This document shows, in pieces, positions 64 to 36,749 of a DNA stretch of 43,303 nucleotides; positions within the stretch are counted from its first letter, which is position 1; every line of letters starts with the position of its first letter. Position numbers and translations under genes: made by a program. This DNA comes from Candidatus Magasanikiibacteriota bacterium (GTDB taxonomy: Bacteria; Patescibacteriota; Patescibacteriia; Magasanikbacterales; UBA10146). The notes under the pieces were generated by a model. That model searched no databases, was not told the DNA's origin, and saw only the letters and a list, made by a program, of their open reading frames with translations. The stretch lies in assembly GCA_016212585.1 (NCBI GenBank), contig JACRFU010000062.1, positions 1-43,303 of the forward strand. The letters run 5' to 3'.

Positions 64-138
64 ACCTCAAAATTTATTCAACAATTCTGTCTCGAACTAT
101 GCGTATTTCGTTACAAAAGCGCATTCGGCGACAGACCC
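64..138 (-). repeat. Family A MITE, half copy (copy 1), abutting the family C arm
   Basis: ACCTCAAAATTTATTCAACAATTCTGTCTCGAA...AAAAGCGCATTCGGCGACAGACCC matches the reverse complement of the left half of full copies such as 8413-8573. The other half is missing. Confidence 0.8.
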
Positions 139-188
139 ATAATAGAAAATACGTACTAAAATGTCAAAAAGTTTCATTTGGGCATGAG

Positions 189-740
189 TTATGCCATCGC
201 GTAGCGCTTTAATGCTTTGCGGCACGCTTTGTAAGCCGGCACGGTCTGCGCCACCAGCTGCCAGAAAGCGCGTGAATGGTTCATTTCTTTAAGATGGCAT
301 AACTCATGCGCAACAATATAGACGGCAATATGGTCCGGCAAAAAAACTATCTGATAATTAAAATTCAAATTGCCTTTTGTTGAACAGCTCCCCCACCGGC
401 TGGAATGCTGTTTAATGCGCACTGCGCGATGAGCGTGTCCATACACCGCGTTCAATGCTTTGATTTTTTCATGCACCAGCGCGCGAGCGTGCTCACGATG
501 CGCAAGATACGAACGCCTGCCGTTTGGCAAAGAGACACGCGGCTTATGTTTTTGTATCCGCAACACCACGCGTTCTATCCATTGTTTTTTTGAATTCACC
601 CACGCGTTAAAACGCGCGCTTGGCATGGCGGACGGTCTCACCGCGATCACTTCTCCCGTGCGGCGCACCGTAATGCGCGCATGACGCGCTCGCGCGCTGG
701 AATGAGTAATATAAAAATTATTCGCCGCAAGAGAGGTCAT
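189..740 (-). CDS. YgjP-like / DUF45 (M48-type) zinc metallopeptidase
   Basis: 183 aa ORF with WGSCS...VAHELCHLKEMNHSRAFW (HExxH motif in the typical DUF45 context). Overlaps the msrB stop by 4 nt. Confidence 0.75.
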   Translation of the reverse strand: MTSLAANNFYITHSSARARHARITVRRTGEVIAVRPSAMPSARFNAWVNSKKQWIERVVLRIQKHKPRVSLPNGRRSYLAHREHARALVHEKIKALNAVYGHAHRAVRIKQHSSRWGSCSTKGNLNFNYQIVFLPDHIAVYIVAHELCHLKEMNHSRAFWQLVAQTVPAYKACRKALKRYAMA

Positions 741-1126
741 AAGCGTGGCATAAACTTCAATGCCGCGGAATTAACACAGTAGCGCGTATCTTTGGGCGTC
801 ATTTTTTCTCCTTCAAACGCATGACCCAAATGCCCGCCGCATCGCGCGCATACAATTTCAACGCGCGCGCCGTCGGCGTCCGGTAGGCGTTTGATCGCGC
901 TTGGGAGCGCGTCATCAAAACTCGGCCAGCCGCATCCGGCATCAAATTTGGCATCTGACGCGAACAGTTCACTCCCGCACCCCGCGCACCGATACATTCC
1001 TTGTGCCTTGGCATCCCAATACATGCCGGTAAACGGCCGCTCGGTGGCACACCCACGCAACACCTTGTATTGCTCCGACGTTAATTCTTTTTGCCACTCT
1101 TCCTCGGTTTTTACAATTTGATTCAT
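737..1126 (-). CDS. msrB: Peptide-methionine (R)-S-oxide reductase MsrB
   Basis: 129 aa with two CxxC pairs (CAGCGSELF, CARCGGHLGHAF), GWPSF and the catalytic RYCVNS motif. Confidence 0.9.
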   Translation of the reverse strand: MNQIVKTEEEWQKELTSEQYKVLRGCATERPFTGMYWDAKAQGMYRCAGCGSELFASDAKFDAGCGWPSFDDALPSAIKRLPDADGARVEIVCARCGGHLGHAFEGEKMTPKDTRYCVNSAALKFMPRL

Positions 1127-1168
1127 ATACAGAAAAATTATTTTTTAATCTCATTCAACGGCAAACCT

Positions 1169-1396
1169 TCAATCAATGCGTTGATTGGCTGAAAAATCCA
1201 AATCCTCAGAGAATCTATATTGTTCAAAATACATGTGGTGCAATGCTGCTCCGCCTTTGAAGATGAGCTTATTTTTAAGAGCAGAATGGGCAATAATCTG
1301 AAGAACGAGCGTTAGAAAATAATCTTTTTCGGCAATATGGAGCGGATATTTTAAGGTTTTACGATTGATAATTTCTAACTGTTGGCGGGTTATCAT
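1169..1396 (-). pseudogene. AbiEii/DUF1814 nucleotidyltransferase toxin, N-terminal 75-aa remnant
   Basis: KGGAALHHMYFEQYRFSEDLDFS matches the N-terminal NTase motif of AbiEii; compare the intact paralog at 19381-20076 (KGGTAALMFYDLTRNSVDIDLDL). Only about 40 nt remain before msrB, so the C-terminal two thirds are deleted. Confidence 0.7.
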
Positions 1397-1410
1397 AAAC
1401 GAAAATATTT

Positions 1411-2198
1411 TTAAGAGAGTGACATGTGATATTGTTCAAAATACTCGTCATAATAAAGTCTCCATTTCGCATTGAACTTTTTGTCCCCAGCAAGCATCCA
1501 GTGAGTGCCGTGTTTCGTATTTATAAGTTGATGTAAACGGGTTGAGTCAATACCAAGAAAATCAAAAATTAGACCGAATATTTTAATGGTAGTAACAGAA
1601 AACTGAGTGAGATATTCATTAATACGATTAAAATTAAGATCATTTTTATGACCCATAAGTTTCTCTATCACCACATCAATGGACAATTTGTTTTTATGAA
1701 AATTCACCATATCAATCAACGCTTTCTCGGCTGTGGCAATTCGTACTAAATTATTTTCTATTTGCTCTTCTTCATAACCAAAATATAAATGTGCTTTAGT
1801 TTTGACAAAGCCATACTCCATGTTATTCAACTTCACTGCTTTGAATGTTTTTAAACTAATTGAAACGGTTTTGCTCATAAGCTGATCAAACATATTATGA
1901 TATTGAAGCGCTGATTCAAAAGAAACATAAGAATCTGTAACCAAAAGATTGGCTATGAGATAAGGCGAAAGCGACAAAAAACCCGATTACTTAACTCTGA
2001 AATGGCATACAGCCCGCGTTTAATCCGAACGAGCCAACCATTTTTAGTAAGTTTGGTAATAAGATTTTTTGCTTGTTTATAATCCCAATCACTCTTGGCC
2101 GCCTCAATAATTTGCCCTGAAGTAACAATAAGACCATGATGCATGATCAAATTCTCCAATAATTCGCTTTGTTTAGCAGAAAGTATAGTTTGTTTCAT
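1411..2198 (-). pseudogene. AbiEi-type antitoxin (wHTH) split by a frameshift in a homopolymer
   Basis: ORFs 1953-2198 (..GWLVRIKRGLYAISE..) and 1411-1977 (..SPYLIANLLVTDSYVSFESALQYHN..) together form one AbiEi-like protein. They switch frame at the A6 run at 1976-1981. Adding one base restores ..SNRVFLSLSPYLIANLL.. Confidence 0.7.
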
Positions 2199-2335
2199 AT
2201 ATCATAAATCATAAAGATAAATGACTTTATACATACATTTTAAACTATTTTAAAAAATTGGTATAATTAACAAAATGTAATGCTAAAAATCCTTTTTTGT
2301 GTCATACTATAGCCATAATTTTAATCTTTATCAAT

Positions 2336-2460
2336 ATGAATTCAAAAAAGTGTATCAAATGCGGATCAAATCAGAACAAAAAGTATGGTAAAGTGCGTGG
2401 TAGACAACGGTTTCTATGCTTCTCTTGTGGCAGACAATTCATTCCAAAACGAGATACAAC
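2336..2460 (+). pseudogene. IS transposase N-terminal zinc-ribbon fragment (IS1 InsA / IS1595-like), truncated by family A copy 2
   Basis: MNSKKCIKCGSNQNKKYGKVRGRQRFLCFSCGRQF has the CxxC-x15-CxxC transposase zinc-ribbon pattern. The reading frame runs straight into the MITE terminus at 2461, and no catalytic domain follows. Confidence 0.55.
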
Positions 2461-2622
2461 GGGTCTGTCGCCGAATATGCTTTTGTAATGAAATGTACAG
2501 ATTTCGAGACAAAATTGTTGAATAAATTTTGAGGTTTAATTGCAAATTAAGCTGAAAAATTTTGAAACGATTTTGGCCGAAATATGTGCATTGCAGTAAA
2601 AATGGCATTCGTCGACAGACCC
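2461..2622 (+). mobile_element. Family A MITE, full copy 2 (162 bp)
   Basis: GGGTCTGTCGCCGAATATGC...GCATTCGTCGACAGACCC. The whole element is an imperfect palindrome. It ends 1 nt from the stop of the 2624-3241 gene. Confidence 0.9.
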
Positions 2623-2623
2623 A

Positions 2624-3241
2624 CTAAATGACTCGCGCAATAACACGCGTAGGTGCGCTGTCTGTTTCAAATTTGGCAGGCAAGGCATATACTTCAAATG
2701 CTTCAACACCCAAAAGCGCGTTTAAATGCGTGAGATTTTCAATGAGTAAAATTTCTTTTTCTAAAAATAATTTATGAATCGGAAATGGCGAATCATCGGG
2801 ACCGGGAGTGTCTAATCCGACCATTTTTACACCGTGGTCAATGAACGAAAGCGCGCACCCGCGTGTCATACGAGGAAAATCAGTGTAATACTCCGGCGCG
2901 CCAAACTTTTCCGACCAGCCGGTCAAGCACAACACAATACTCCCTTGCGAAATTTTTACCACACTCGCCACGGTTTCATCAATCACCGCTTTGCCGCGCG
3001 CGTCAATCAAAATATCTTGTCCTATCAACCTCTCAATCGGTATTTCAGAAAGTTTTCGTCCTCCTTTTACCATATGCATCGGTCCGTCTATATGCGTGCC
3101 TACATGCATGCCAGTTCGCACTTCATGATCCGCAAACTTGTCTTTTTCAATATTCGCAATCTGTTGTAATTGCGGTACAGCATCCCCCGGATAAACAGGC
3201 ATACGCGTGGTAAAGGTATGCGTGAGATCAATATAATGCAT
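2624..3241 (-). CDS. Cyclase-family protein (kynurenine formamidase-like, PF04199-type)
   Basis: 205 aa. N-terminus is MHYIDLTHTFTTRMPVYPGD, with HVGTHIDGPMHM and GLDTPGPD motifs typical of the putative cyclase / arylformamidase fold. Confidence 0.7.
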   Translation of the reverse strand: MHYIDLTHTFTTRMPVYPGDAVPQLQQIANIEKDKFADHEVRTGMHVGTHIDGPMHMVKGGRKLSEIPIERLIGQDILIDARGKAVIDETVASVVKISQGSIVLCLTGWSEKFGAPEYYTDFPRMTRGCALSFIDHGVKMVGLDTPGPDDSPFPIHKLFLEKEILLIENLTHLNALLGVEAFEVYALPAKFETDSAPTRVIARVI

Positions 3242-3435
3242 AACATTTTACTTCTTGTAATTATACTTTACTAAATATATTCTGTAAATGATGGCGCAAT
3301 CAAAAAACACGCCGTGACCAAAGCATGTTTTTTGATTATCTTTTATTTTTTATTCCCCAGATATTCTTTCGGCCAGTTGCCGATCAGCATCTGTAACTGG
3401 AGTAAATTTGTAGATAAACCTCGCTGACATACTAT

Positions 3436-3595
3436 GGGACTGTCGCCGAATGCGCTTTTGTAGCAAAATTTCTGAATTTTGAGATAGAATTGTTGAATAA
3501 ATTTTGAGGTTTAACAGCAGTTAAGCCGAAAAATTTTGAAACGATTTTGACCGAAATTTGCCAATGAAGGAGAAATGCTATTGGGGGACAAGTCT
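3436..3595 (+). mobile_element. Family A MITE, copy 3 (subfamily A2, right terminus degenerate)
   Basis: GGGACTGTCGCCGAATGCGCTTTTGTAGC...TTGAGGTTTAACAGCAGTTAAGCCGAAAAATTTTGAAACG... The right end is decayed to GCTATTGGGGGACAAGTCT. It starts 1 nt after the secY stop codon. Confidence 0.8.
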
Positions 3596-3596
3596 A

Positions 3597-4871
3597 TTAA
3601 TATATCTCGTAATCGTGCATAGAAACACGAGCCTCTACCTGCTGGACAATTTCAATGACCACCGCCACCACAATTAAAAGCGAAGTTCCGCCGATTGCCA
3701 AAGAAGTACTGCCTGCAAATTGGCGCAAAGTCAACGGTAAAACCGCGATTGCGCCCAAAAACAACGAGCCTGCAAGTAAAATGCGATTCATAATATAGGT
3801 GAGATATTCCGCGGTCAGATGGCCCGGACGAATACCGGGAATAAACCCGCCTTGTTTTTGCAAATTTTCCGCGATTTTTTGAGGTTGAAACACAATAGCC
3901 GCGTAAAAATACGTAAACACCACCACCAGAAAAAAATATACCACGGCGTAAAAAATCTGATTGTTAAACAAACTGATCGTTGACGCGGCCGCGTTGCGCA
4001 ACCATGGCGCGCTCGCGTGCGCAAAAAATTGCGCGATCATGCTCGGAAACAAAATCAAAGAAATCGCGAAAATAATCGGAATTACGCCTGCCATATTAAC
4101 GCGCAATGGCAAGTGTGACTGCGTGCCGCCGTAGGATTTGCCGCCATGAATATGCCGCGCGTACGATACCGGTATATTGCGCTGTCCTTCAGTAATAAAT
4201 ACCACGCCGATAATGGTAAAGATTGCAACGCCCACAAACAAAATCATATTCAACAGCTGGCTTGAGTCATACGTCAAAAGTGTCTGTTGAAGCCTGCCCG
4301 GCAAACCGGAAATAATACCGGCAAAAATAATCAATGAAATGCCGTTGCCGATTTTACGCTCGGAGATAAGTTCTCCAATCCACATAAGAAACATACAACC
4401 CGCGGTAATGGTGATCATAGAGGTGACCAAGCGCATAACGCTTAAATCCGTAATAACACCGCGAGCGGAAGCGCGCAGAAGCATAATGGTGCCGTATCCC
4501 TGTAAAATTGCCAAAGGCACGGTTGCGTAACGAGTATATTGATTAATTTTTTGCTGGCCTTGTTCCCCTTCTTTGGAAAGCGCGTCAAGCGAAGGAATTA
4601 CCATACCCAACAACTGAAAAATAATTGATGCGGTAATGTATGGTCCCACGCCAAGCATAATAACAGAAAAATTTTGCAAAGTGCCTCCGGAAAACACATT
4701 GACCAAGCCCAAAATCTGATTGGATTGAAAAAAACGGCGCAATGCGATAACATCTACGCCAGGAATGGGAATATGCGCGAGTAATCGGAAAATCACGAGC
4801 ATCCCTATGACAAATAAAACATCGCGTCGCAAATCTTTGATTTTCCAAATGTGTCCTAACCGTTCAAACAT
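3597..4871 (-). CDS. secY: Preprotein translocase subunit SecY
   Basis: 424 aa multi-pass membrane protein at the end of the spc cluster, with typical SecY sequence (..FSGGTLQNFSVIMLGVGPYITASII..). Confidence 0.95.
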   Translation of the reverse strand: MFERLGHIWKIKDLRRDVLFVIGMLVIFRLLAHIPIPGVDVIALRRFFQSNQILGLVNVFSGGTLQNFSVIMLGVGPYITASIIFQLLGMVIPSLDALSKEGEQGQQKINQYTRYATVPLAILQGYGTIMLLRASARGVITDLSVMRLVTSMITITAGCMFLMWIGELISERKIGNGISLIIFAGIISGLPGRLQQTLLTYDSSQLLNMILFVGVAIFTIIGVVFITEGQRNIPVSYARHIHGGKSYGGTQSHLPLRVNMAGVIPIIFAISLILFPSMIAQFFAHASAPWLRNAAASTISLFNNQIFYAVVYFFLVVVFTYFYAAIVFQPQKIAENLQKQGGFIPGIRPGHLTAEYLTYIMNRILLAGSLFLGAIAVLPLTLRQFAGSTSLAIGGTSLLIVVAVVIEIVQQVEARVSMHDYEIY

Positions 4872-4879
4872 AATGAATT

Positions 4880-5323: not shown

Positions 5324-5337
5324 ATCAATTGGTATAG

Positions 5338-5952: not shown

Positions 5953-5981
5953 AGTTAATTTTTTATGGTGTGTATGGTGTG

Positions 5982-6359: not shown

Positions 6360-6376
6360 AAAAATATATACGTATT

Positions 6377-6925: not shown

Positions 6926-6934
6926 ATGTTTTGA

Positions 6935-7327: not shown

Positions 7328-7353
7328 AAAAAATAATTCTTGTGTATAAAAAA

Positions 7354-8401: not shown

Positions 8402-8412
8402 ATTGAGGTTAT

Positions 8413-8573
8413 GGGTCTGTCGCCGCATGCGCTTTTGTAATGAAACGCGCAGATTTCGAGACAAAATTGTTGAATAAATTTTGAGGTTTAATAATTTTTA
8501 AGCTGAAAAATTTTGAAATAATTTTGTCCGAAAGATGCGCGTTGCAATCAAAATGGCATTCGGCGACAGACCC
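8413..8573 (+). mobile_element. Family A MITE, full copy 4 (161 bp) between rplN and rplX
   Basis: GGGTCTGTCGCCGCATGC...GCATTCGGCGACAGACCC. It begins 3 nt after the rplN stop and ends 11 nt before the rplX ATG. Confidence 0.9.
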
Positions 8574-8576
8574 ATA

Positions 8577-8948
8577 TTATACCACTTCAGGCGCTAATGA
8601 AATAATTTTGGCAAAGCCTTTGTCGCGCAATTCGCGCGCAATCGGACCAAATACACGGCTTGCTTTTGGTTCTTTTGATTCTTTATCAACAATCACCGCG
8701 GCGTTGTCGTCAAAACGCACCGTAATGCCGTTACTGCGATTAATAGCCGCGCGCGTACGCACAATCACCGCATGCGCCACATCGCCTTTTTTAACCATAC
8801 CATACGGCTGGGCTTCTTTCACCGCTACAGTAATAATATCCCCCACGCGGGCGTAGCGCTTTTTGTAACCGCCAAGTACGCGAATACACTGGAGCTTTTT
8901 TGCTCCGGTATTATCTGCTACGGCTAACATGGTGCGGTGTTGTATCAT
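8577..8948 (-). CDS. rplN: 50S ribosomal protein L14
   Basis: 123 aa starting [18 protein letters not shown]. Confidence 0.95.
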
Positions 8949-8960
8949 ATTCGTGTTTAG

Positions 8961-9083
8961 TAGGACTTACGCCTTTGGCCAATTTCTTCGTCAAAGCCTG
9001 CGCTTCTCGCTCGTCGTAGATATACTACGGCTTGCTCCGATGCTCGGCTTTTCCTTGAACTTGTCTCAAAGGCGTAAGTCCTA
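8961..9083 (+). mobile_element. Family B MITE, copy 1 (123 bp) between rpsQ and rplN
   Basis: Perfect 17-bp TIR TAGGACTTACGCCTTTG / CAAAGGCGTAAGTCCTA, flanked by a direct 5-bp repeat TTTAG (8956-8960 and 9084-9088). Confidence 0.9.
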
Positions 9084-9084
9084 T

Positions 9085-9959: not shown

Positions 9960-9970
9960 ATTATGTGGTA

Positions 9971-10093
9971 TATGACCTACGCATTTGTCCAATTTCTTCG
10001 TCAAAGCCTGCGCTTCTCACTCGTCGTAGGTATACTACGGCTTGCTCCGATGCTCGGCTTTTCCTTGAACTTGTCTCAAATGCGTAGGTCATG
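9971..10093 (+). mobile_element. Family B MITE, copy 2 (123 bp) between rpsC and rplP
   Basis: TIR TATGACCTACGCATTTG / CAAATGCGTAGGTCATG. The interior is nearly identical to copy 1. Flanks are TGGTA / TGATA (4 of 5 match). The rpsC stop codon TGA (10089-10091) lies inside the element terminus. Confidence 0.88.
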
Positions 10094-12323: not shown

Positions 12324-12325
12324 AG

Positions 12326-12487
12326 GGGTCTGTCGCCGAATGCGCTTTTGAAACGAAATGCGCAGATTTCGAGACAAAATTATTGAATAAATTTTGAGGT
12401 TTAATTGCAAATTAAGCTGAAAAATTTTGAAACAATTATGGCCGAACTATGCATATTGCAGTCAAAATGGCATTCGGCGACAGACCC
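12326..12487 (+). mobile_element. Family A MITE, full copy 5 (162 bp) between rplW and rplB
   Basis: GGGTCTGTCGCCGAATGC...GCATTCGGCGACAGACCC. Flanking 5-mers are CATAG (12321-12325, which contains the rplB start codon) and CATAT (12488-12492). Confidence 0.9.
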
Positions 12488-12494
12488 CATATGA

Positions 12495-12956
12495 TTATAC
12501 CGAACTCAAAAGAGTAATATGGTCTCCTTTGCCGACGGTAACCATTGCCTTCTTCCACGCTTTGCGCGTGCCGCTTCTGCGCCCAAACTGTTTTACTTTC
12601 CCGCGCATGCTCACGATGCGCACTTTGATAACCTTTACTTTAAAAACTGATTCAACCGCTTTTTTCACTTCTACTTTATTAGTGTTTTTTGCGACTTCAA
12701 ATACATATTGATTTTGTGTTTGGTGCAAGGTGTTCTTCTCCGTGAGAAGAGGACGCAATAATACGCGATGCGCGCCGCCAGTGGCGCGTGGTTTTTCTTC
12801 AATAGACGGTGTGGAAACAACCACTTCTGTTTCCTTGTTGGATTTTAATGATACAGTTTTTTCTGCAACAGCAACAATCACAGGTGTTTTTTTTTGTTGC
12901 GTTACTTGTTTTTTCTGCTCTTCTTTTTTATTTTTGTACCAATTAAAAATACTCAT
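12495..12956 (-). CDS. rplW: 50S ribosomal protein L23 with a ~55-aa N-terminal extension
   Basis: The C-terminal ~95 aa (LLRPLLTEKNT...FEVAKNTNKVEVKKAVE...KKAMVTV) are canonical L23. The N-terminal part is Lys/Glu/Thr-rich. Confidence 0.9.
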   Translation of the reverse strand: MSIFNWYKNKKEEQKKQVTQQKKTPVIVAVAEKTVSLKSNKETEVVVSTPSIEEKPRATGGAHRVLLRPLLTEKNTLHQTQNQYVFEVAKNTNKVEVKKAVESVFKVKVIKVRIVSMRGKVKQFGRRSGTRKAWKKAMVTVGKGDHITLLSSV

Positions 12957-16402: not shown

Positions 16403-16753
16403 TTAGCTCTCAACCGGCTCCAAATAATAGTGGTCTTCAACCTGCTTTTCTTCTAAAACTTGTGGTTTTTCAGCAAATTCTTCCCACCAATCCGGCGCGG
16501 CGGTTTCCGTCAATTCTTGAACAAGCACTCCGCCAAGCGGCAACGCGCTTTGGGCTACTTCTTCCTTTATAGGAGTAACAAAAGATGTTTTTTCCTGCAT
16601 TTTTTCTGTTAATCCCTGTTTACCAAACACTAGATGCTCATAATCTTTAATGGACATGACCACATAATTATTCTCTGTGGAGCGATCAATCACCACCAAG
16701 CGGTCGCCTGTTTTTTTGATGAGTTCTAAAATTTGGTCAAACGATTCGGTCAT
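16403..16753 (-). CDS. Phd/YefM-like antitoxin-fold protein with an acidic tail (no adjacent cognate toxin)
   Basis: The N-terminal DRLVVIDRSTENNYVVMSIKDYEHLV resembles the Phd/YefM beta-strand core. The C-terminal half is Glu/Pro-rich. Confidence 0.4.
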   Translation of the reverse strand: MTESFDQILELIKKTGDRLVVIDRSTENNYVVMSIKDYEHLVFGKQGLTEKMQEKTSFVTPIKEEVAQSALPLGGVLVQELTETAAPDWWEEFAEKPQVLEEKQVEDHYYLEPVES

Positions 16754-16787
16754 AGTGTATCAATTGTATAAAAAATATCTTCCCTTG

Positions 16788-17189
16788 TCAACCCGCGCTC
16801 ATATGATCCAACACCATCTGCATTAAGACGTAATACTTCTCTATACTCTCTAAAAGCTGTCTTGCGAATGCTTCATCATAGGTGTGTGTTGTTGTATTAT
16901 GATCATCCACCATTTGCAAAAGCGTTTCTGTTTCAACATCTGACACCAGTTCATGAACACGCAACGCTCTAAAACATTCTTTGGGGGAAGGCGCATTCGT
17001 CCCAAAACGTTCAAATAAAAATACTTTACATGCTTTCCAGCACAACTCAAACGAATATTCAAACCGCTGTATGGCGGCATCGCGCACAAATGTCTCCACA
17101 TTCTCCGGATTATATGCATCTAACGCTTCTTTGGGCGTCATAAGCGCTTTTTTGAATGCGCCCAATTTATAGATTAACGTTTGATCCAT
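16788..17189 (-). CDS. HEPN-domain protein, HI0074-family nucleotidyltransferase substrate-binding subunit (HepT-like toxin)
   Basis: 133 aa with DAAIQRFEYSFELCWKACKVFL, typical of NTase_sub_bind/HEPN. Overlaps the upstream MNT gene by 16 nt. Confidence 0.75.
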   Translation of the reverse strand: MDQTLIYKLGAFKKALMTPKEALDAYNPENVETFVRDAAIQRFEYSFELCWKACKVFLFERFGTNAPSPKECFRALRVHELVSDVETETLLQMVDDHNTTTHTYDEAFARQLLESIEKYYVLMQMVLDHMSAG

Positions 17190-17470
17190 ACAATCTTGTT
17201 ATTTTCTAAAACATTTTTTTGAAAAGCCGCCGCGGCCGTATTGAAATTGACCACATCTATTTTAAAAGGAAGTGTTGATGTTTCAAATACTTCCTTTAAT
17301 TTTCTTATATCTCCTTCAGTTATGTTTCCTTTCACTCCCACATCAACATCGGAAAATTTGTCTTGCCGCACCGCGGAACCAAATAAAAAAATCTGTATTT
17401 TTTTTCCTTTGGCAAAGGTGGAAAGGTCTTTTTTAATCCGTTCAAAATACTTTTTTTTATTCTGAATCAT
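17174..17470 (-). CDS. Minimal nucleotidyltransferase (MNT / MntA-like antitoxin)
   Basis: Start placed at MIQNKKKYF. Contains the polbeta-NTase motif FLFGSAVRQDKFSDVDVGV. The upstream part of ORF 17174-17566 is repeat read-through. Confidence 0.75.
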   Translation of the reverse strand: MIQNKKKYFERIKKDLSTFAKGKKIQIFLFGSAVRQDKFSDVDVGVKGNITEGDIRKLKEVFETSTLPFKIDVVNFNTAAAAFQKNVLENNKIVWIKR

Positions 17471-17483
17471 ATGCACATATAAT

Positions 17484-17537
17484 GGGTTTGTCGCCGAATG
17501 CCATTTTGACTGCAAAAGCGCATTCAGCGACAGACCC
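17484..17537 (-). mobile_element. Family A mini-derivative (54 bp, both termini, interior deleted), copy 6
   Basis: GGGTTTGTCGCCGAATGCCATTTTGACTGCAAAAGCGCATTCAGCGACAGACCC, flanked by a perfect direct repeat ATAAT (17479-17483 and 17538-17542). Confidence 0.85.
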
Positions 17538-17593
17538 ATAATAACAAAAAAATGCTTGTAATGCAAGAAAAAAATAATGCGTGAAAAACTTGA

Positions 17594-19402
17594 TTATCTC
17601 TCTCTGCTCGCGCGCAAAGCGTTCAATATGGCAACCACATCTATAAGCTCTTGCACCACGGCGCCGGTAAGGGGAGGCAATCCGCCCAGAGCGGCCACTA
17701 TCATGCCTATGCCGCTCAAACCCATGCCGATAAAAATACTCGTGAACGCAATCCGCACGGTGCGCCTGGCTATACCAAGCGCGTCGCACACCAAAGAAAA
17801 CTCACCACCCAAAAACACAATATCCGCCGCGTCCGACGCGGCCGTGCGTTCTTCATTTGAAAACACCAATCCCACATCCGCCGTGGCAAGCGCCGGCGCG
17901 TCGTTGATGCCGTCTCCCACCATTGCAATGCGAAAGCCTTTTTGTTTCAAATCCGCGACACCTCTCTGTTTGTCTTCCGGCGACATTTCCGCGGTTACCT
18001 GCACATGCGTGCCCAGCGCCTCCCGCACTCGCGCCGCGGCCGCCTCTTTGTCTCCGGTAAAAATACGCAATAAAAATTTCTGGCTCTGCAAGCGTTCAAT
18101 AATCGCGCGCGACTCATATTTTATTTCATCTTCAATAAAAAATGTCGCCGCAAGCACTTCATTTTCATAAAGCCCTACCGCCATGCTGTTATGATCTTGT
18201 ACTTTGGTCACAAAAAAATGCGAACAGGCAACAACCCCGCCAATTCCCTTTCCAATCTGTTCTTCCACTTTTTGCGCCTGCATCATGGGCGCATGCACGC
18301 TATGCGCGTATGAAACAACAGACTTTGCAAGAGGATGCAAAGAGTTTCGTTCCAGTGCGGACGCAATGCCAACCAACTCTTCCACACTGCGCGTGACGGA
18401 ATGAGACTCCACACTCGTAACGCGCGGCACGCCGAGTGTGATAGTGCCAGTCTTATCAAACACCAACGCGTTCACACGCGCGAGCGTCTCCAAGCTCGCA
18501 AGGCGCTTTACAATAATTCTACGTTTTGCCGCGGCATTAACCCCGCCCAAAAGCGCGATTGGTGTTGCCAAAATCAACGGGCACGGCGTGGCAATAACCA
18601 GCACCGCCAAAACACGACCCCACTCGCCGGAAATAAAATACGCACCCGCCGCGATGACGAGCGTAACCGCGGCAAACCAACCGCTTGCTTTGTCCGCAAG
18701 GCGTATGAGCGGCGCTTTTTCTCCCTGCGCTTTTTCCACCAACTCAATAATCTTATGATAGGTGGAGTCTTTTTCTTCCGCGGTCACACGCACCACAACC
18801 GCGTCTCCTTTGTTCACCGTACCACTGCGCACTACATCACCTTTGATTTTATCTATAATATACGGCTCGCCGGTGATTGATGATTCATCAGTAAGACCAT
18901 TTTCAGATTCCAAAATACCATCCAATGGTATAACTTCTCCCTTGCGGATACAAATCGCATCTCCCACGCGCACTTGCGCGATAGATCGTTTCTCTCCCGG
19001 ATTACCCTCAACCGCCATTAAAATATCCCGCGGAATACGCCCTATGAGCGATGTCAAAGATTTTCGTGCCAACTGCACGCCGTATGCTTCAAGCGCGCGA
19101 CCGGTGGACGCCATAAACGCAATCACAAGCGCCACCACATATTGACCCATCACAAGCGCCACCAGCAACGCCAAAAGAGCGATGTAGTCTATAGCATACC
19201 TACGCGCGCGCAATTCTTGCCATGTTTCTTTTATAAGCGGAGCACTGCCAAAAGCCACACCCACATACGCAACACCAACCGCTATCTCCGCAAATGCGAT
19301 AACGCGCAAAAGCGCATACAAAACAAAACACACCCCTACAAACAAAGGTCCTTTCCACCAGGTAATTAACGAACGGATAATCATTTTTTGCTTTCTAACC
19401 AA
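17594..19402 (-). CDS. Heavy-metal-translocating P1B-type ATPase without an N-terminal metal-binding domain
   Basis: 602 aa with DKTGTIT, MVGDGINDAPALA and the transmembrane motif ATPCPL. An alternative ATG at 19384 gives an ATGA overlap with the AbiEii stop. Confidence 0.88.
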   Translation of the reverse strand: MVRKQKMIIRSLITWWKGPLFVGVCFVLYALLRVIAFAEIAVGVAYVGVAFGSAPLIKETWQELRARRYAIDYIALLALLVALVMGQYVVALVIAFMASTGRALEAYGVQLARKSLTSLIGRIPRDILMAVEGNPGEKRSIAQVRVGDAICIRKGEVIPLDGILESENGLTDESSITGEPYIIDKIKGDVVRSGTVNKGDAVVVRVTAEEKDSTYHKIIELVEKAQGEKAPLIRLADKASGWFAAVTLVIAAGAYFISGEWGRVLAVLVIATPCPLILATPIALLGGVNAAAKRRIIVKRLASLETLARVNALVFDKTGTITLGVPRVTSVESHSVTRSVEELVGIASALERNSLHPLAKSVVSYAHSVHAPMMQAQKVEEQIGKGIGGVVACSHFFVTKVQDHNSMAVGLYENEVLAATFFIEDEIKYESRAIIERLQSQKFLLRIFTGDKEAAAARVREALGTHVQVTAEMSPEDKQRGVADLKQKGFRIAMVGDGINDAPALATADVGLVFSNEERTAASDAADIVFLGGEFSLVCDALGIARRTVRIAFTSIFIGMGLSGIGMIVAALGGLPPLTGAVVQELIDVVAILNALRASRER

Positions 19403-20076
19403 GCTTGTAATAAAAATATTGTTTCGGTTCGCAACTTTACTCGAGCCCAGTCTTTCTGCGATTCATTGAGCATCTCCCCAAGACCGTCAAGGATATGTCG
19501 GTTATCCATTTTCTCTAAAAGTTCTACGCATTTAACCAAAACATCTTTAAATGGCATCTTGGCACGATCTTCAACCAATTTTATATTTATCGGCCAATTA
19601 TTTTTAGCAAAAAAATACACATCATATACATCACGACTCGTTTTGCCGATTCGTTCATACATGGCCATTAACTTATTGGCAAACATATCTTCTTTGACCA
19701 TCACGGGCATTGAAATTCCCAATAATATTTTTAATTCATAGCGAGAACCAAAATTTCGACGATTGACTTCTATCTTGATATTCTGAGATTTTAAATCGTA
19801 TGAAATAACCGTGACCAAATTAAATCTTTTAATCCTTGCGTCAACAATTTTGCCATAACTCACGGAAATCTTTTGAATTTTCTCAAATACTTGCTTCTCC
19901 TTGCTTTCATCCAAAAGATCAAGGTCAATATCAACAGAATTGCGGGTTAAGTCATAAAACATAAGAGCGGCAGTCCCGCCTTTAAAACCTAGATAAGGAG
20001 AGAGTGATGTATCAGAAAAAATATCTTTCAAAATTTGTAATAAGATATTTTTATGTTTCGGATAGTCTAACGTCAT
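19381..20076 (-). CDS. AbiEii / DUF1814 nucleotidyltransferase toxin (type IV TA)
   Basis: 231 aa with GFKGGTAALMFYDLTRNSVDIDLDL. Lies immediately downstream of an AbiEi-like gene. Confidence 0.8.
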   Translation of the reverse strand: MTLDYPKHKNILLQILKDIFSDTSLSPYLGFKGGTAALMFYDLTRNSVDIDLDLLDESKEKQVFEKIQKISVSYGKIVDARIKRFNLVTVISYDLKSQNIKIEVNRRNFGSRYELKILLGISMPVMVKEDMFANKLMAMYERIGKTSRDVYDVYFFAKNNWPINIKLVEDRAKMPFKDVLVKCVELLEKMDNRHILDGLGEMLNESQKDWARVKLRTETIFLLQAWLESKK

Positions 20077-20087
20077 ACCCTTTTATC

Positions 20088-20648
20088 TCATAATTTATTG
20101 TCTTTGTAATGTTTTAAATATTCCGCAACCTTTTTTTCCATTCTCTTGTTACGATATATCGGCAAAATTTCAAAAACTTTTTCCCAATCCAAAACATCCA
20201 AGTGATCAAAATGGTAATCTTTACTAATATATATCCTATCCAAAAATGCCCGTTCTTTTGTGGCCGTAGATATGTCATTTGTATGTTCAATTCCCATTGT
20301 GTTGCTTAAAACGTAATCTTTCATCCTGATGAAAGATATCTTTTGTCCATCAGCTTCAATCTCACGAGTAACATATGAAGCAACAAAAATGTTTCCGTAA
20401 TATTGAAAATTTACTCCGGCACGTGTTAATACCGTTTCAAAACTGATATATGAAGGGGTATAAATTCTAGTAGCCAACTCAAAACGGTTATAGTTTTTAT
20501 CTTTAGCGTAAATACCCTGATAAATTCTAATCAATTTCCCTTTTTTTGCATAATTGCTTAATCTTACCCGAACATTGGTTGTGCCTTGTTCACCCCACAA
20601 CAAAGCAATGTCTCTAGTGGAAAAGACAGTTTTAGGAGATCGTAACAA
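20088..20648 (-). CDS. AbiEi-type antitoxin / transcriptional regulator
   Basis: 186 aa with FSTRDIALLWG...KKGKLIRIYQGIYA...TPSYISFETVLTRAGV (AbiEi_4-like). Confidence 0.75.
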   Translation of the reverse strand: MLRSPKTVFSTRDIALLWGEQGTTNVRVRLSNYAKKGKLIRIYQGIYAKDKNYNRFELATRIYTPSYISFETVLTRAGVNFQYYGNIFVASYVTREIEADGQKISFIRMKDYVLSNTMGIEHTNDISTATKERAFLDRIYISKDYHFDHLDVLDWEKVFEILPIYRNKRMEKKVAEYLKHYKDNKL

Positions 20649-20764: not shown

Positions 20765-20862
20765 CAGACTGTCTGAGAACTGCCATTTTAGAGTTTTTTT
20801 GAAATTTTTTTGGCTAATTTTAACACCGCAATTTTCTAAAAATTGAGTTTCTGGACAGTCTG
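20765..20862 (-). repeat. Divergent short relative of family A (98 bp)
   Basis: CAGACTGTCTGAGAACTGCCATTTTAGAG...TTTCTGGACAGTCTG. Termini are a 9-bp inverted repeat (CAGACTGTC / GACAGTCTG). GACTGTC..GCCATTTT and the TTTGAAATTTTTTTGGCT core are shared with family A. Confidence 0.55.
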
Positions 20863-25223: not shown

Positions 25224-25560
25224 GATTTTTGCCTCTCCTGCTGGTTGAATTGTCAAACATCGCGTTGTGCGCGCAAGACTCTCTTGCGGTTGTGAATTAC
25301 GAAACTGCGTTGAAGCAATGGCTTTGAGGGGACTGCGCAACCGCGGGTCGCGTGCGAGCTAGAGCAAAAATCCTTCAAGGATTTTATGCGTACCCCGAAA
25401 ATCTATTGCTTAAAAAAGCTGTTTCGTAATTCACAGCTTACGAAATCGCAATATAGAGTATCATAACATAAAAAAACTATTTGTCCACACCCGCACCCCT
25501 TGCGCTCTAAACGCCGCTATCATAAAATGGGTTGGGCTTGTCTATTAACCTATAACCCTT

Positions 25561-28754: not shown

Positions 28755-28806
28755 TAACAAAAAATCGTCCCAACACGCGCTGGGGCGATTCCTCATTTTG
28801 TAAATC

Positions 28807-28988
28807 TATGGACATCACATTTAGAAATCGCACTAAGCATTCTTTAATATGGATGATGTGCGAGCACGTTGGAACGAAAAAATAAGCGAGCTGTATTACC
28901 TATACAGCGAGCTTATTTTTTTGTGAAACGAGAAGCACATCGCCATAGTAATGGATTATGAGTGCGATTTCTAAATGTGATGTCCATA
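28807..28988. mobile_element. Family C palindromic element (182 bp) overlapping the 3' end of ndk
   Basis: Perfect 28-bp inverted repeat TATGGACATCACATTTAGAAATCGCACT (28807-28834 and 28961-28988). The arms continue as an imperfect palindrome to a central hairpin. Confidence 0.75.
28875..28922. terminator. Bidirectional terminator-like hairpin at the centre of the family C palindrome
   Basis: AATAAGCGAGCTGTAT (28881-28896) pairs with ATACAGCGAGCTTATT (28902-28917), leaving a 2-nt internal mismatch. An A run lies on one side and a T run on the other. Confidence 0.45.
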
Positions 28989-29567: not shown

Positions 29568-29630
29568 ATGTATGATTTAATAATTCAAGTGAGCATAGGA
29601 TAACAAAAAATCTGAGATTTGGCAAGTAGC

Positions 29631-31697: not shown

Positions 31698-31700
31698 GCG

Positions 31701-32090
31701 CTATTTGGTATTCAGACACTGCACGCCTTTAAGCACCACGTCCGGAGTCGGCTTGTATTGAGGATTTGCAAGAATATCCGCCAAATTTTTTTCACCTAAT
31801 TGTTTTGCCAAACACGCTTTTTCCGCCGGTTTGAGCGAATCATAAAACCCTTTGACCGTGCCAAATTGTCCCATTTTCTGCATCATTTCTTGAATGCCGC
31901 TCAGTTGTGTGCCACCCAATCCGCTCATTTTTCCGCCAAAACCTTCCGAGCTTAAAGCACTCATCATGGGAGCAATACCCTGCCATGGCTTTGCTTTAGC
32001 AAGCGCGAAACCACTTACCAAGAGAACGAGTCCAATACCTGCCCATACAACAAAAAATATGGTTCCGAACAAATGGTATATAAATTTCAT
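31701..32090 (-). CDS. Small membrane-anchored/secreted hypothetical protein
   Basis: Start placed at the ATG giving MKFIYHLFGTIFFVVWAGIGLVLLV (one TM/signal segment). The TTG start at 32120 listed in the ORF track is only 4 nt from MITE copy 7. Confidence 0.55.
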   Translation of the reverse strand: MKFIYHLFGTIFFVVWAGIGLVLLVSGFALAKAKPWQGIAPMMSALSSEGFGGKMSGLGGTQLSGIQEMMQKMGQFGTVKGFYDSLKPAEKACLAKQLGEKNLADILANPQYKPTPDVVLKGVQCLNTK

Positions 32091-32124
32091 ATGATATATA
32101 AAAAATAACTTATGGCTCAATTAT

Positions 32125-32204
32125 GAGTCTGCCGCCGAATGCTATGCCCGTAACAAAATGTACGTATGCGCATTGCAGTCAAAATTGCATTCGGTGGCAG
32201 ATCC
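32125..32204 (+). mobile_element. Family A internally deleted derivative (80 bp), copy 7
   Basis: GAGTCTGCCGCCGAATGCTATGCCCGTAACAAAATG joined to TACGTATGCGCATTGCAGTCAAAATTGCATTCGGTGGCAGATCC. Flanked by a perfect direct repeat ATTAT (32120-32124 and 32205-32209). Confidence 0.8.
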
Positions 32205-32221
32205 ATTATATCAGACTCGTG

Positions 32222-32253
32222 AAAAAAAAGAAACTTCAGCGGTTTGACTGAAG
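32222..32253 (-). terminator. Intrinsic terminator downstream of the 32288-32953 gene
   Basis: CTTCAG, 8-nt loop, CTGAAG, followed on the minus strand by TTTCTTTTTTTT. Confidence 0.55.
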
Positions 32254-32287
32254 TGTGGAAAAATTGGTTTGACATCGCCTCGTATGA

Positions 32288-32953
32288 TTACGCGGATGGC
32301 GCGTCCAAAGCAGTTGAATCTGCTTCTTGCTTAAAAGCTCCGCGCAATAGATCACACAGATACCGGCGGGCATGGCCGTGGTCAAGCCGCCAGCTTTCAA
32401 GCAACGCGTAGAGCACATGCATGGTTTCCAGACGATCACTGATCAGTGTCCGATGAGGATGATTATCATGGATATCTCCAACGCAATCACCAACCACCAG
32501 TGCACGATCGAATTTTCGTGTCTGACGATTGTAAAGTTGAAAAATCCATCCATGCGGCAATGGAGACACTCTTATCTCGTCGATATAAACACGCAAAGTC
32601 AAGTTGAGAGATGCCTTGACAAACATGCTCATATCACGCACTCGCGCGATAGTCCTCACTGTTGTATCAAAAAGATACACTGCGGTCGATGCTCTTTGCT
32701 CACCATATAATGACTCGTCGAAATTAATAAGGTGGATACCAAGCTGAATGCAATTCGCTGGATCCGCAAGATCAATCGCGTCGGCGAGCATCTCATAAAG
32801 AAACACGTCGTGAGATACATCATGCGCTCTTTCGCAAGAGGTCAGGTATCCCGCTACAATAGGAAGCACCGCGCGCCAAGACATATAATGAACATCTCCA
32901 AGATGTTGAAGGTGTTGAGTTGTTTCAAGGAGCAATAGAAGTTTGCTATCCAT
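32288..32953 (-). CDS. Hypothetical protein (221 aa), His/Asp-rich, no recognisable domain
   Basis: Start placed at MDSKLLLLLE, preceded by GGGAGG 5 nt upstream. Looks GC-richer than neighbours by eye. Bracketed by family A remnants. Confidence 0.65.
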   Translation of the reverse strand: MDSKLLLLLETTQHLQHLGDVHYMSWRAVLPIVAGYLTSCERAHDVSHDVFLYEMLADAIDLADPANCIQLGIHLINFDESLYGEQRASTAVYLFDTTVRTIARVRDMSMFVKASLNLTLRVYIDEIRVSPLPHGWIFQLYNRQTRKFDRALVVGDCVGDIHDNHPHRTLISDRLETMHVLYALLESWRLDHGHARRYLCDLLRGAFKQEADSTALDAPSA

Positions 32954-32964
32954 CTTAACCTCCC

Positions 32965-33053
32965 ACAAAATGTGGTTGAATGATACACTGAGACGAAAAA
33001 TTTTGAAACAACTATGGCCGAACTATGTCAAAATGGCATTCGACGACAGACAC
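32965..33053 (+). repeat. Family A partial copy 8 (right half, left terminus missing)
   Basis: ..GAAAAATTTTGAAACAACTATGGCCGAACTATG-TCAAAATGGCATTCGACGACAGACAC matches the right half of copy 5. Confidence 0.75.
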
Positions 33054-33149
33054 AATACAAGACCATATCACATTTCAAACACAAACGCAACATCGGATAG
33101 GATATGTGTCAACGGGAAATAGAAATGTCCTATAGACATCCTGCCTTAA

Positions 33150-34367
<1,218 letters not shown>

Positions 34368-34661
34368 TTACGCCTTTCGCACATATCCGTGGCACACATC
34401 CACAAGAATCTTATCACCATCTTTGAACACTTTAGTGTCATGTTTAGTGCCAATTACACATGGCTTATTGAGCTCACGAGCAACAATTGCCGACTCGTTT
34501 TTTTCAAAGTGCTTTTTCACAAACATTCGCGCATTTTTGCCTGTTATAATTTTTTGTGTTTCAGAAAAATGCAATGAGTAACGTTTACGCTCTCGTAATT
34601 CTTTGCGTGATATATTCACGCGCCAGGTCTGAATCAACGCGCGCGCTTCGCTCAGCGCCAA
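34368..34661 (-). pseudogene. Remnant of a PEP-utilising mobile (swivel) domain gene lacking the phospho-His
   Basis: SAIVARELNKPCVIGTKHDTKVFKDGDKILVDV parallels [34 protein letters not shown] of the 38734-40167 protein. The GGxTSH segment and the whole N-terminal region are missing. Confidence 0.6.
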
Positions 34662-34708
34662 GTAACCAAATTCTTCATGAGTGAAGCTTTCTTCGCTATT
34701 CTTACATC

Positions 34709-35278
34709 TTAATGTATAAACATCGCGTCGCCGAAAGAGAAAAATTTATAGCCGTATTTTTTTGCTTCTTCGTAGGACGTCAAAACGCGCTCACGGAGCG
34801 CAAACGCGGACACAAGCATGAGCAATGTTGACTTGGGCAGATGAAAGTTGGTAATGAGCGCGTCCACAATACGAAACTCGAAAACTCCCCCGTCATGCAC
34901 CGCTTTGCCGACAATGCCTTTTATCCCCTCTTGAAATTCAACTACTACACCCTCTTTGAGTTTATGTCCGGGTTTGCCAAGTGCTTCCCACACACACGAA
35001 TCCGCGCCCATACTCACCGGCTTTAACAAAAAAATTTCAACGCCTGATTTTGTATTGCCTTGCAGGCAGCCATTGAGCCTGGATCTAAATACTTTGATGT
35101 TGTTGAGCACCAACACATCTCCGGCGCGCATTAGTGCCGTAATTTCAAAAAATTTCCGATGTACCGTCTCGCCTGTTTTACGATCTAACACCAACAATTT
35201 GCACGCGTCGCGCTTGGCTTGCGGCTCTTGGGCAATAAATTCGTGGGGTAAAAAATAATCAAAATCCGAGGTGAGCAT
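34709..35278 (-). pseudogene. queA: queA (S-adenosylmethionine:tRNA ribosyltransferase-isomerase) with an in-frame internal deletion of ~150 aa
   Basis: 189 aa. The N-terminus [25 protein letters not shown] and C-terminus [22 protein letters not shown]...[10 protein letters not shown] are canonical QueA. The central part (PLPPYI, AAPTAGLHF) is absent; bacterial QueA is about 340 aa. Confidence 0.7.
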
Positions 35279-35287
35279 AATCGTACA

Positions 35288-36749
35288 CTATTTCAACTTT
35301 TTTACCCATCCATGGTTTGCGTTCACCTCAACTATATCGCCATCACGCAACACTTCCGTCGCAATCTTGGTACCGATAATGCTTGGAATGCCAAGCTCAC
35401 GGGAAACAATCGCCGCGTGAGAAGTAATGCCTCCTTCACTAGTTACTATTGCCGCGGCTTTTTTCATTGCAGGGGACTGTCGCCGAATGCGCTTTTGTAA
35501 CGAAATTTCCAGATTTCTGGACACAATTGTTGAATACATTTTGAGGTTTAACAGGAGTTAAGCCGAAAAATGTTGAAACAATTTTGGATGAAATAGGGGA
35601 ATTGCAGTCAAAATGGCATTCGGCGACAGTCCCTGCAGTGATATAATCCGGCCGCGTCATGACCGCTACCAAAATATCACCCTGTTTAACTTTGTCGGCT
35701 TCCGTGGCCGAATTAAGTATGCGCACAGGGCCAATTGCTCTGCCGGTTGAAGCGGATAACCCCCTAAAATCATCAACTTGGTCATGTGGTTTTTGCCCCA
35801 AAACCATTTTTTTCAATTCTTCCAAGCACGCGCTTGGTACCACCTCAAACGCTTCTCCGACCACAATAAATCCGGATTTTTTTCTACCTTGCAATTCTTT
35901 TCGCGACGGTTCTCTTTTTGACATAATATCTTTAATTTCTACCGGATAGGCAAATTTCAACTCATCCAATGTATAATCCGTGCGCCGGACAACTTCTTTC
36001 AAAATAGTACAACCCATATCAATGTTAAAATAGGTTGCTTTTTTACACTTATCTTGCCACCATGTAAAATCTTCCGAGATCTGTATGAGCGCGCGCAGAA
36101 GCGCGGACAATTTTACTTTTTTAAACAGCGCTTGTTTTTTTATTCTATTCAAGCGCGGCGTTTCATACAAATGTTTCAATTCCTTCTTTAAATCTTTGCC
36201 GCTTTTTTTCCACGCTCTGATTTCTTCTTGAAAATGCTTCACACTCAACACCTGCGCTGTGATATAATTATTCTTGCTCCAATACGAGCGCTTTTGATAG
36301 GCGACTAAATTATCCTTGGAAACGCCCACTATAATTTTAAGCAGTTCTATTTCCGCCTGATTGCTAAATGATTGATGCACGGGCGCAGTGGCAATGCTAA
36401 AAATTTCAGTAAATTGTGATTCTTTAAATCTCGCGGAATTTTTTGAGCCATATAATTCCTTGCGCAGTAGCGCGCTGATAATCTCGTCCGTGCCCAAAGC
36501 AAAATGATCAATCAAAATTGTTGAAGTGGCGCAATTGATGAATAACGTATAGGTGGTATTCCACACTTCAAGAAGTTGCGCATCGGAACATTTTTTTAAA
36601 TCAATCGCAGGGAATGTTTTCCAAAAATATCGTTCATATATCTGTTCATCTTTTTTCCATTTCTTGAGCAATTTTGTTGAAAGCCGAGGGTCTTTTTTGG
36701 CAAGCTCAACAAACCGTTTTGCCGCACACCGTATATCACCCATTTCCAA
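35288..36749 (-). pseudogene. PEP-utilising-enzyme-like gene (paralog of 38734-40167) split by family A copy 9
   Basis: The upstream part ends ..ILVAVMTRPDYITA and the downstream part starts [28 protein letters not shown]. The intact paralog has ..[42 protein letters not shown], so the 166-nt insertion (161-bp element plus 5-bp duplication) sits exactly between A and M. Confidence 0.85.
35473..35633 (+). mobile_element. Family A MITE, full copy 9 (161 bp, subfamily A2) inside a coding sequence
   Basis: GGGACTGTCGCCGAATGC...GCATTCGGCGACAGTCCC, flanked by a perfect 5-bp direct repeat TGCAG (35468-35472 and 35634-35638). Confidence 0.92.

Follow-up and report, generated by a model that had tools for sequence, protein, structure and literature searches.

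Correia elements (CREE/NEMIS) of Neisseria are non-coding repeats of about 100–155 bp that have terminal inverted repeats and fold into a hairpin over their whole length. They are present in many copies, mostly intergenic and co-transcribed, and no transposase has been assigned to them. Correia ends begin with TATAGTGGATTAA, and the elements duplicate TA. Rickettsia palindromic elements (RPE) are hairpin repeats of about 100–150 bp in a small host-dependent genome, and some of them are located in coding sequences. Bacteria of the Candidate Phyla Radiation (CPR/Patescibacteria) are commonly portrayed as streamlined, with little mobile DNA. In one groundwater study, they proved poorer than Pseudomonadota in plasmids, phages and other mobile elements (PMC12023590), and full-text literature searches did not reveal a published description of MITEs (miniature inverted-repeat transposable elements) in CPR/Patescibacteria. 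Here, a 43,303-nt stretch of the contig JACRFU010000062.1 (hereafter, the window) was analyzed. It originates from Candidatus Magasanikbacteria, an uncultured groundwater member of CPR/Patescibacteria, and contains a hairpin repeat of about 161 bp designated as family A. It is highly probable that family A is a non-autonomous DNA transposon (MITE) that was recently active in Candidatus Magasanikbacteria and related groundwater Patescibacteria. A MITE had already been proposed in a sequence-only reading of the window, and this proposal is supported by the size of the repeat, the absence of coding sequence, the inverted repeats, the copy number, the target-site duplications (TSDs), empty sites in relatives and a gene that is restored on excision.

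In the window, family A comprises five full copies (160–162 bp) as well as two mini and two half copies, all confirmed using a hidden Markov model (nhmmer) and a covariance model built from the family A copies; one further hairpin is a doubtful relative. The full copies were recovered at the coordinates given previously, namely 2461–2622, 3436–3595, 8413–8573, 12326–12487 and 35473–35633, and according to the repeat finder all five are in the same orientation (plus strand). Their alignment showed 86% per-column identity with invariant tips and a conserved apex region; pairwise divergence was 9–30%. The terminal inverted repeats of family A are about 25 bp long, GGG(T/A)CTGTCGCCGAATGC(GC/CA)TTTTG; the tips form 18 perfect pairs, and about 25 nt are common to both ends. 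The 25-nt terminus pattern GGGWCTGTCGCCGAATGCSMTTTTG (up to 3 mismatches) was found 13 times in the window; the number expected according to 100 shuffles was 0.00. Contrary to the earlier description of termini shared by the full copies, the right end of copy 3436 is non-standard and belongs to a AGACTTGTCCCC sub-family. Between loci, the identity of the termini (89%) was higher than that of the interiors (70%), and the GC content of the interiors tracked that of the host (Spearman 0.77). Given the conserved termini and the interiors that follow host GC, the pattern is consistent with long residence in several lineages in which only the ends are constrained.

It was found that insertion of family A duplicates 5 bp of an AT-rich target, with the TSDs flanking the GGG(T/A)CTG...CAG(A/T)CCC termini. 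A perfect 5-bp direct repeat touching the tips was present in 7 of the 23 copies having both ends (TGCAG, ATAAT twice, ATTAT, TATAA, AAGAG and TTTAT), and at least four of the five positions matched in 12 of the 23. When left flanks were combined with wrong right flanks, the permutation means were 0.09 perfect cases and 1.6 cases with at least four matches. TSD lengths from 3 to 9 bp were compared, and none besides 5 gave more than one perfect case. The A+T content of the TSDs was 83%.

Comparison of occupied and empty sites between related genomes, which had been suggested along with the MITE proposal, revealed orthologous empty sites at four family A insertions in two relatives (loci L013 and L025). 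Locus L013 belongs to Magasanikbacteria GW2011_GWA2_45_39, whose SecY is 86% identical to that encoded in the window. Its L23|L2 and L14|L24 spacers are 4 nt each and contain no element, and the blastn alignment of the window with L013 is collinear, with gaps exactly at 8406–8576 and 12325–12486. The L23|L2 junction in L013 reads TAAGCATATG (TAAGCATATGGCA) and is elementless, while the window contains TAATCATATG, the element and CTATGGCA in this order; the L2 start codon lay within the 5-mer that was duplicated there. No exact terminus match was found in a scan of the GW2011_GWA2_45_39 genome, and no family A match in the 21 kb compared. Locus L025 is syntenic with window positions 28.4–41.1 kb at 88–92% (about 90%) nucleotide identity. 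It contains a single TGCGG at the place where copy 35473–35633 is flanked by two TGCAG motifs in the window, and a single ATTGT where the window has ATTAT on both sides of the copy 32125–32204. The reciprocal case was also found, namely a 35-nt remnant of a family A terminus in L025 with none at the corresponding spot of the window.

Copy 35473–35633, which is flanked by the perfect TSD TGCAG (35468–35472 and 35634–35638), is not intergenic and is located inside a minus-strand gene (35288–36749) encoding a phosphoenolpyruvate (PEP)-utilising (phosphohistidine swivel) domain protein. The reading frame of this gene is broken because the 166-nt insert is not a multiple of three. In silico excision of positions 35473–35638 (the element plus one TSD) restores a 431-aa open reading frame (ORF). 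The restored product aligns end to end, including across the junction, with that of the intact paralog at 38734–40167 (paralog residues across the junction: MTSPEYIFAMKKACAVITDTGG). Its full length (100%) is also covered by alignments with homologs of about 500 aa. The gene was knocked out by family A after divergence from the relative that is approximately 90% identical.

The other full copies are located next to gene ends. Copy 2461–2622 (162 bp; nhmmer 169 bits, covariance model 178.8 bits) lies 1 nt past the stop codon of a minus-strand cyclase-like gene (2624–3241). Copy 3436 (160 bp; covariance model 127.7 bits) lies 1 nt past the stop codon of secY, at which the alignment of the window with L013 also stops. 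This copy is chimeric, combining a standard left end with the right end of the AGACTTGTCCCC sub-family; the sub-family was also found at L008:4728–4887, where both tips changed together (AGACTTGTCCCC...GGGGGACAAGTCT). Copy 3436 may be a recombinant between sub-families. Its ends pair poorly, with RNA folding energies of −49 kcal/mol for one strand and −25 kcal/mol for the other. Copy 8413–8573, detected by both nhmmer and the covariance model, is located between rplN (L14, 8577–8948) and rplX (L24, start at about 8402), both on the minus strand. Copy 12326–12487 is located between rplW (L23, stop codon 12495–12497) and rplB (L2, with the ATG 2 nt away); its TSD is CATAG/CATAT (four of five positions matching), and the L2 start codon falls inside it.

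Two shorter copies were identified as internally deleted, in agreement with the previous description, and both have perfect 5-bp TSDs. The mini copy at 17484–17537 (54 bp, TSD ATAAT, covariance model 55.7 bits) consists of two termini fused head to head, and the copy at 32125–32204 (80 bp, plus strand, 37.8 bits) is flanked by ATTAT at 32120–32124 and 32205–32209. Both half copies described earlier exist, with bounds that had to be corrected. The left half (model positions 1–78) is located at 61–138 in inverted orientation (minus strand) and abuts a fragment of another repeat, family C, at 1–63; most likely, a nested insertion split a family A copy here, and the contig end then truncated it. 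The right half (model positions 70–159) was found by nhmmer at 32971–33053 on the plus strand and adjoins the start of a minus-strand gene (32288–32953). As for the 98-bp hairpin at 20765–20862 with the tips CAGACTGTCTGAGAAC...GTTTCTGGACAGTCTG, which had been listed as a divergent relative, it could not be assigned to the family: the covariance model gave 14.7 bits (E = 0.18), and the nhmmer family A search did not detect it. Its tips are vaguely similar, and it may be a distant relative of family A.

The proposal that each copy folds into one hairpin agrees with the folding energies (z from −6.5 to −9.8). For copy 12326, −37.8 kcal/mol was obtained for DNA (z = −6.5) and −58.6 kcal/mol for the minus-strand RNA (z = −8.1); RNA of copy 35473 gave −61.4 kcal/mol (z = −9.8). 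The consensus hairpin of 22 full copies from 15 loci contains 59 pairs, and 95.2% of the cells are standard pairs. Changes on both sides were observed at 34 of the 59 pairs, and none of 500 column shuffles matched the observed values. When the partners were slid by 1–3 columns, pairing dropped to 35–52%. Paired changes affect the tips, where T-A has become A-T at position 4, as well as the apex, with its stems TTAA/TTAA, TTATC/GATAA and TATAT/ATATA; binding of the apex by a transposase is not expected. Family A is a quasi-palindrome over its whole length, with pairing kept by compensatory changes. In addition, in 21 of the 22 copies the strand written GGGTCTG...GCGC... gives a more stable fold than the complementary one (means −77.3 and −64.4 kcal/mol), and the mismatches of the hairpin are G.U on one particular strand. 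Since most G.U positions are shared by descent, this asymmetry characterizes the family and should not be counted as 21 separate events.

To evaluate the distribution of family A, other genomes were searched for its terminus. The exact terminus was found in 12 loci from six other species-representative metagenome-assembled genomes (MAGs) and in eight metagenome loci, including contigs from the Hainich groundwater, so the family is not confined to the contig of the window, contrary to a possible refutation named in the sequence-only reading. A further 17 full copies were identified in these other loci, on host contigs with a GC content from 33% to 57%. The MAGs are labelled as Azambacteria, Kerfeldbacteria, "uncultured Gammaproteobacteria" and "uncultured bacterium". 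The title "uncultured Gammaproteobacteria bacterium" is carried by CAYMCJ01, CAYJVP01 and CAZRYK01 (loci L001, L002, L006, L011 and L012). The best named relatives of the CAYMCJ01 IF-2 are from Patescibacteria and Falkowbacteria, and judging from this protein sequence the Gammaproteobacteria label of CAYMCJ01 is probably wrong. The label "Azambacteria" of JACRAK01 is unconfirmed; its contig 32 holds only surface-polysaccharide genes. This contig (JACRAK010000032.1) contains about eight family A copies in 45 kb together with families B, C and D of the window, and some of its family A copies resemble copies from the window more strongly (96% and 93% identity) than those from the window resemble each other. 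Solo termini in L002 and L005 were considered as possible ends of longer elements and rejected; they are short remnants beside uvrB-like and rpoB-like genes.

Much of family A in the window is associated with the minus-strand S10-spc cluster, which encodes L4, L23, L2, S19, L22, S3, L16, S17, L14, L24, L5, S8, L6, L18, S5, L15 and SecY. The view of a compact genome was borne out by the CPR host, by the lack of L30 in this operon (there is no room for it between S5 and L15) and by the 4-nt spacers of the closest relative. At least four hairpin repeat families account for about 42% of the non-coding DNA of the window and for about 4.6% of its total length. The S10-spc operon was entered four times, twice by family A and twice by family B. 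Four window copies begin 1–7 nt past a stop codon, and for two of these the distance to the following start codon is 2 and 11 nt. The surviving copies occupy the few bases between genes or dispensable genes; positions near stop and start codons would be expected if the AT-rich 5-mers there were the sole non-lethal sites. A promoter and terminator scan found no terminator-like site within the operon copies in the transcribed sense, and no U-tract follows the stem. No integration host factor site or strong outward promoter was detected in family A. Weak sigma-70-like hexamers (9 of 12 matches) are present on the plus strand at two right ends (8553–8580 and 12467–12495), where they are formed by the right terminus and its AT-rich flank (ATGGCA, a 16–17-nt spacer, TATTAT or TATGAT). 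They face outward, antisense to the ribosomal-protein genes, and recall the promoters at the ends of Correia elements; for the latter, the reported effects act on the RNA (RNase III) and via promoters that arise at the element ends (PMC2649163). No tRNA genes were found in the window, and an exact-protein look-up of L14 for strain variants returned no record.

The orientation of the copies was also analyzed. Selection of orientation by transcription was rejected as a general rule, as the loci taken together show no consistent preference: of the copies in co-directional gene contexts, about eight are sense and seven antisense. The better-folding strand is located on the contig strand with negative GC skew (C-rich) in about 10 of 12 contigs, including 5 of 5 window copies and 6 of 7 copies on JACRAK010000032.1. 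The skews of 0.02–0.03 over 8 kb are noisy, and the contig-level count corresponds to p of about 0.04. There may thus be a replication-linked orientation bias, which is statistically weak.

These characteristics allow us to propose how family A could move and persist. Insertion proceeds through a 5-bp stagger at AT-rich sites, and the ends of about 25 bp, the best-conserved part across hosts, are all that is required. Family A has no coding capacity, and the transposase presumably acts in trans; its gene may lie in another part of the genome or on a separate replicon, or may since have been lost. The enzyme would most likely be a DDE-type enzyme making 5-bp staggers. The hairpin could let copies persist in tightly coupled operons. 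In the polycistronic RNA, the arms would pair and set the upstream stop codon and the downstream start codon side by side where the stem begins. By melting this base, a ribosome that terminates at the stop codon would expose the next start codon. Such translational coupling across the hairpin is an inference.

Several results weigh against this reading or against parts of it. The four ribosomal-operon and secY copies have degenerate TSDs, in which 2–4 of 5 positions match. In line with the earlier statement, Pfam and NCBIfam scans of about 50 ORFs of the window detected no transposase; the same databases revealed none among 20 ORFs flanking copies in other loci. A fuzzy search of about 190 kb of loci gave no terminus pair more than 170 bp apart, and no autonomous element with family A termini was found in the window, the 26 loci, viral contigs or plasmids. 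A search of viral contigs with an 18-mer of the terminus gave two chance-like matches only; the one designated L023 is 21 nt long, lies on a high-GC contig without a second terminus and is probably due to chance. A blastn search of a full copy against 72,556 plasmids gave only two 33-nt matches (E = 0.4) and no Tn3-family repeat. With respect to coupling, no recognisable Shine–Dalgarno sequence is present between the element and the ATG for L2 and L24, and the strand transcribed in the window is the weaker-folding one. Moreover, covariation need not mean selection. Template-switch correction of quasi-palindromes is a known mutational process that also yields paired changes, and those of family A may stem from either structural selection or this correction.

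The best lead for the enzyme is the Tn3 family, at which the TSD length of 5 bp, the AT-rich targets and the sequence of the outer terminus hint. A 5-bp target duplication with a preference for AT-rich targets is a hallmark of this family. The Tn3 inverted repeat used for comparison was confirmed as a real sequence that is very common in plasmids. The outer 17 nt of the family A terminus match it at 13 of 17 positions with a 1-nt offset (GGGTCTGxCGC). Against this link, the inner 20 nt are at chance similarity (3–5 of 20), and the family A terminus lacks both the canonical fourth G and the inner TAAG. Judging from these terminus sequences, a Tn3-family origin of family A can be proposed tentatively, with the balance tilted against it.

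Other explanations of the repeats were considered. The hairpin might be used, after co-transcription, as an RNA element, either as an RNase III processing site or stabiliser uncoupling mRNA segments, in the way reported for Correia elements, or as a coupling device; this would supplement transposition and not replace it. In that case, the compensatory changes would be due to selection acting on the RNA. Compensatory changes at 34 of the 59 pairs, the better folding of one strand in 21 of the 22 copies with G.U on that strand, and the location of copies within operons that need read-through are in line with such a role, as is the binding and possible cleavage of Correia elements by RNase III reported in PMC2649163. 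However, the orientation relative to transcription is inconsistent (about 8 sense and 7 antisense copies), the window transcripts carry the weaker-folding strand in all five copies, the G.U positions are mostly inherited and the 21 of 22 are therefore not independent, and the destruction of a gene by one copy is the behavior of a selfish element. We consider a role as an RNA element unlikely. Much lower still is the probability that family A is a structured non-coding RNA gene or cis-regulatory leader that has been repeated incidentally. It has a strong conserved hairpin and most copies are intergenic, but there were no Rfam matches at gathering thresholds in the whole window; this also answers the concern, raised with the MITE proposal, that the family might match a known structured RNA. 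In E-value mode, Rfam gave generic long-hairpin models only (best score 36.3 bits against a threshold of 195). In addition, the copies stand beside unrelated genes in both orientations, one of them inside a coding sequence, and the TSDs and the empty sites in relatives contradict an RNA gene, making this explanation hardly credible.

Movement as a single-stranded DNA hairpin, like that of REP/BIME (repetitive extragenic palindromes and bacterial interspersed mosaic elements) with RAYT (REP-associated tyrosine transposase) or of miniature elements of the IS200/IS605 type, would account for the whole-length palindrome, the strand asymmetry and a replication-related orientation bias. The forward strand indeed folds better and is on the C-rich strand in about 10 of 12 contigs. 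At the same time, HUH/Y1 elements have neither TSDs nor terminal inverted repeats, whereas family A has a clear 5-bp TSD and its termini are its best-conserved part; the GC skew of 0.02–0.03 is noisy (p about 0.04), and no Y1 transposase was found in the scanned window and flanking ORFs. This type of movement is therefore rated as very improbable. An assembly or binning artefact, with collapsed or chimeric joins at the repeat, could be suspected from the start of the contig inside a repeat and from the Logan assembly of the run SRR12113407, in which 4,952 bp at 100% identity to the window break at both ends inside family A copies. Short-read assemblies typically break at repeats. This independent assembly nevertheless reproduces the secY–element and L24–element junctions at 100% identity, the genes on either side of every copy keep the order found in two relatives, and the copies differ by 9–30% and so are not one collapsed sequence. 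The probability of an artefact is accordingly negligible. Mobilisation as a MITE thus remains the preferred explanation.

As an extension of the MITE interpretation, the whole-length hairpin could be an adaptation and not a by-product, making the insert topologically "zero-length" in RNA and fit for the 4-nt spacers of coupled operons in a genome with hardly any other non-coding DNA, with the orientation set by replication such that the better-folding strand is kept off the lagging-strand template. This idea is speculative and more probably wrong than right by a wide margin. If true, it would point to a hairpin-dependent step in the spread or loss of the element, and to a MITE design specialised for ultra-compact genomes that the same organism also has in no fewer than three further hairpin families (B, C and D).

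These other repeats were found as follows. Family B is a hairpin repeat of about 120–129 bp with tips such as GACCTACGCATTTGAGAC...CAAATGCGTAGGTC, located in the window at 8956–9084, 9970–10090 and 40824–40952. Its copies between S17|L14 and S3|L16 occupy sites that are both empty in L013, and the copy 40824–40952 is absent from L025; family B is also present at L010:4761–4889 (JACRAK010000032.1). Family C (about 184 bp, tips TATGGACATCACATTTAGAAATCGCAC) likewise consists of hairpin repeats and is represented by positions 1–63 (cut by the contig start) and a full copy at 28805–28988 that is absent at the orthologous L025 site; other copies are located at L009:1535–1716 and L008:1–136. Family D (25290–25439) is shared with JACRAK010000032.1 (L003:229–314 and 2799–2880; L009:3350–3465), and its covariance-model match is weak and reflects hairpin shape only.

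Signs of gene loss were observed near the disrupted gene. The queA gene (34709–35278) has lost 525 nt internally in comparison with L025 (junction 34882|34883), and its product is 189 aa versus 366 aa long. At 34368–34708, most of a paralog of the PEP-utilising protein (582 aa, L025:7075–8823) has been lost. The queA deletion, the paralog loss and the MITE-disrupted gene suggest ongoing gene decay. Elsewhere, the fusA–tuf adjacency is broken at 16403–20648 by genes encoding a P-type heavy-metal ATPase, an AbiEii-like toxin, a HepT-like (nucleotidyltransferase substrate-binding) protein and hypothetical proteins, and a second AbiEi/AbiEii pair, apparently fragmented, is located at 1169–2198.

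The interest of family A lies in its CPR host, its density and its colonisation of spacer-less ribosomal-protein junctions. Taken together, the repeat load, the operon insertions, the gene knockout and the gene decay make the host resemble a genome under relaxed selection with active selfish DNA more than a purely streamlined one. The repeats also explain contig breaks in the assemblies of these organisms and could be used as strain-level markers.

To place family A among known systems, it was compared with described bacterial repeats; a literature search for its terminus sequence returned only an unrelated herpesvirus paper. REP/BIME elements with RAYT are likewise intergenic palindromes often located just past stop codons, with a possible strand bias. 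In contrast to family A (161 bp, 5-bp TSD, no RAYT seen), REPs are 20–40 nt long, lack TSDs and are Y1-linked. RPEs insert in frame, stay in the protein and have no clear inverted termini or TSDs, whereas the one genic copy of family A adds 166 nt and breaks the frame. TIMEs (Tn3-derived MITEs) are non-autonomous and mobilised in trans (PMC13367494), and the 5-bp TSD of family A is in agreement with such elements. Their defining inverted repeats, about 38 bp long and homologous to Tn3 (PMC13367494), are not found in family A, where the likeness is limited to the outer 17 nt. The TIMEs listed in that paper stem, in our reading, from transposons of Proteobacteria. Furthermore, TIMEs are not described as whole-length hairpins, and no Tn3-family transposase was found with family A. 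Correia elements share with family A all the general features given at the outset and differ from it in their TA duplication, in the host phylum and in the termini, to which GGG(T/A)CTGTCGCC is unrelated. They are the nearest analogue in architecture and context, and family A stands outside every named family. Thus, family A is an ordinary kind of mobile element in an unusual host and works like other bacterial hairpin MITEs.

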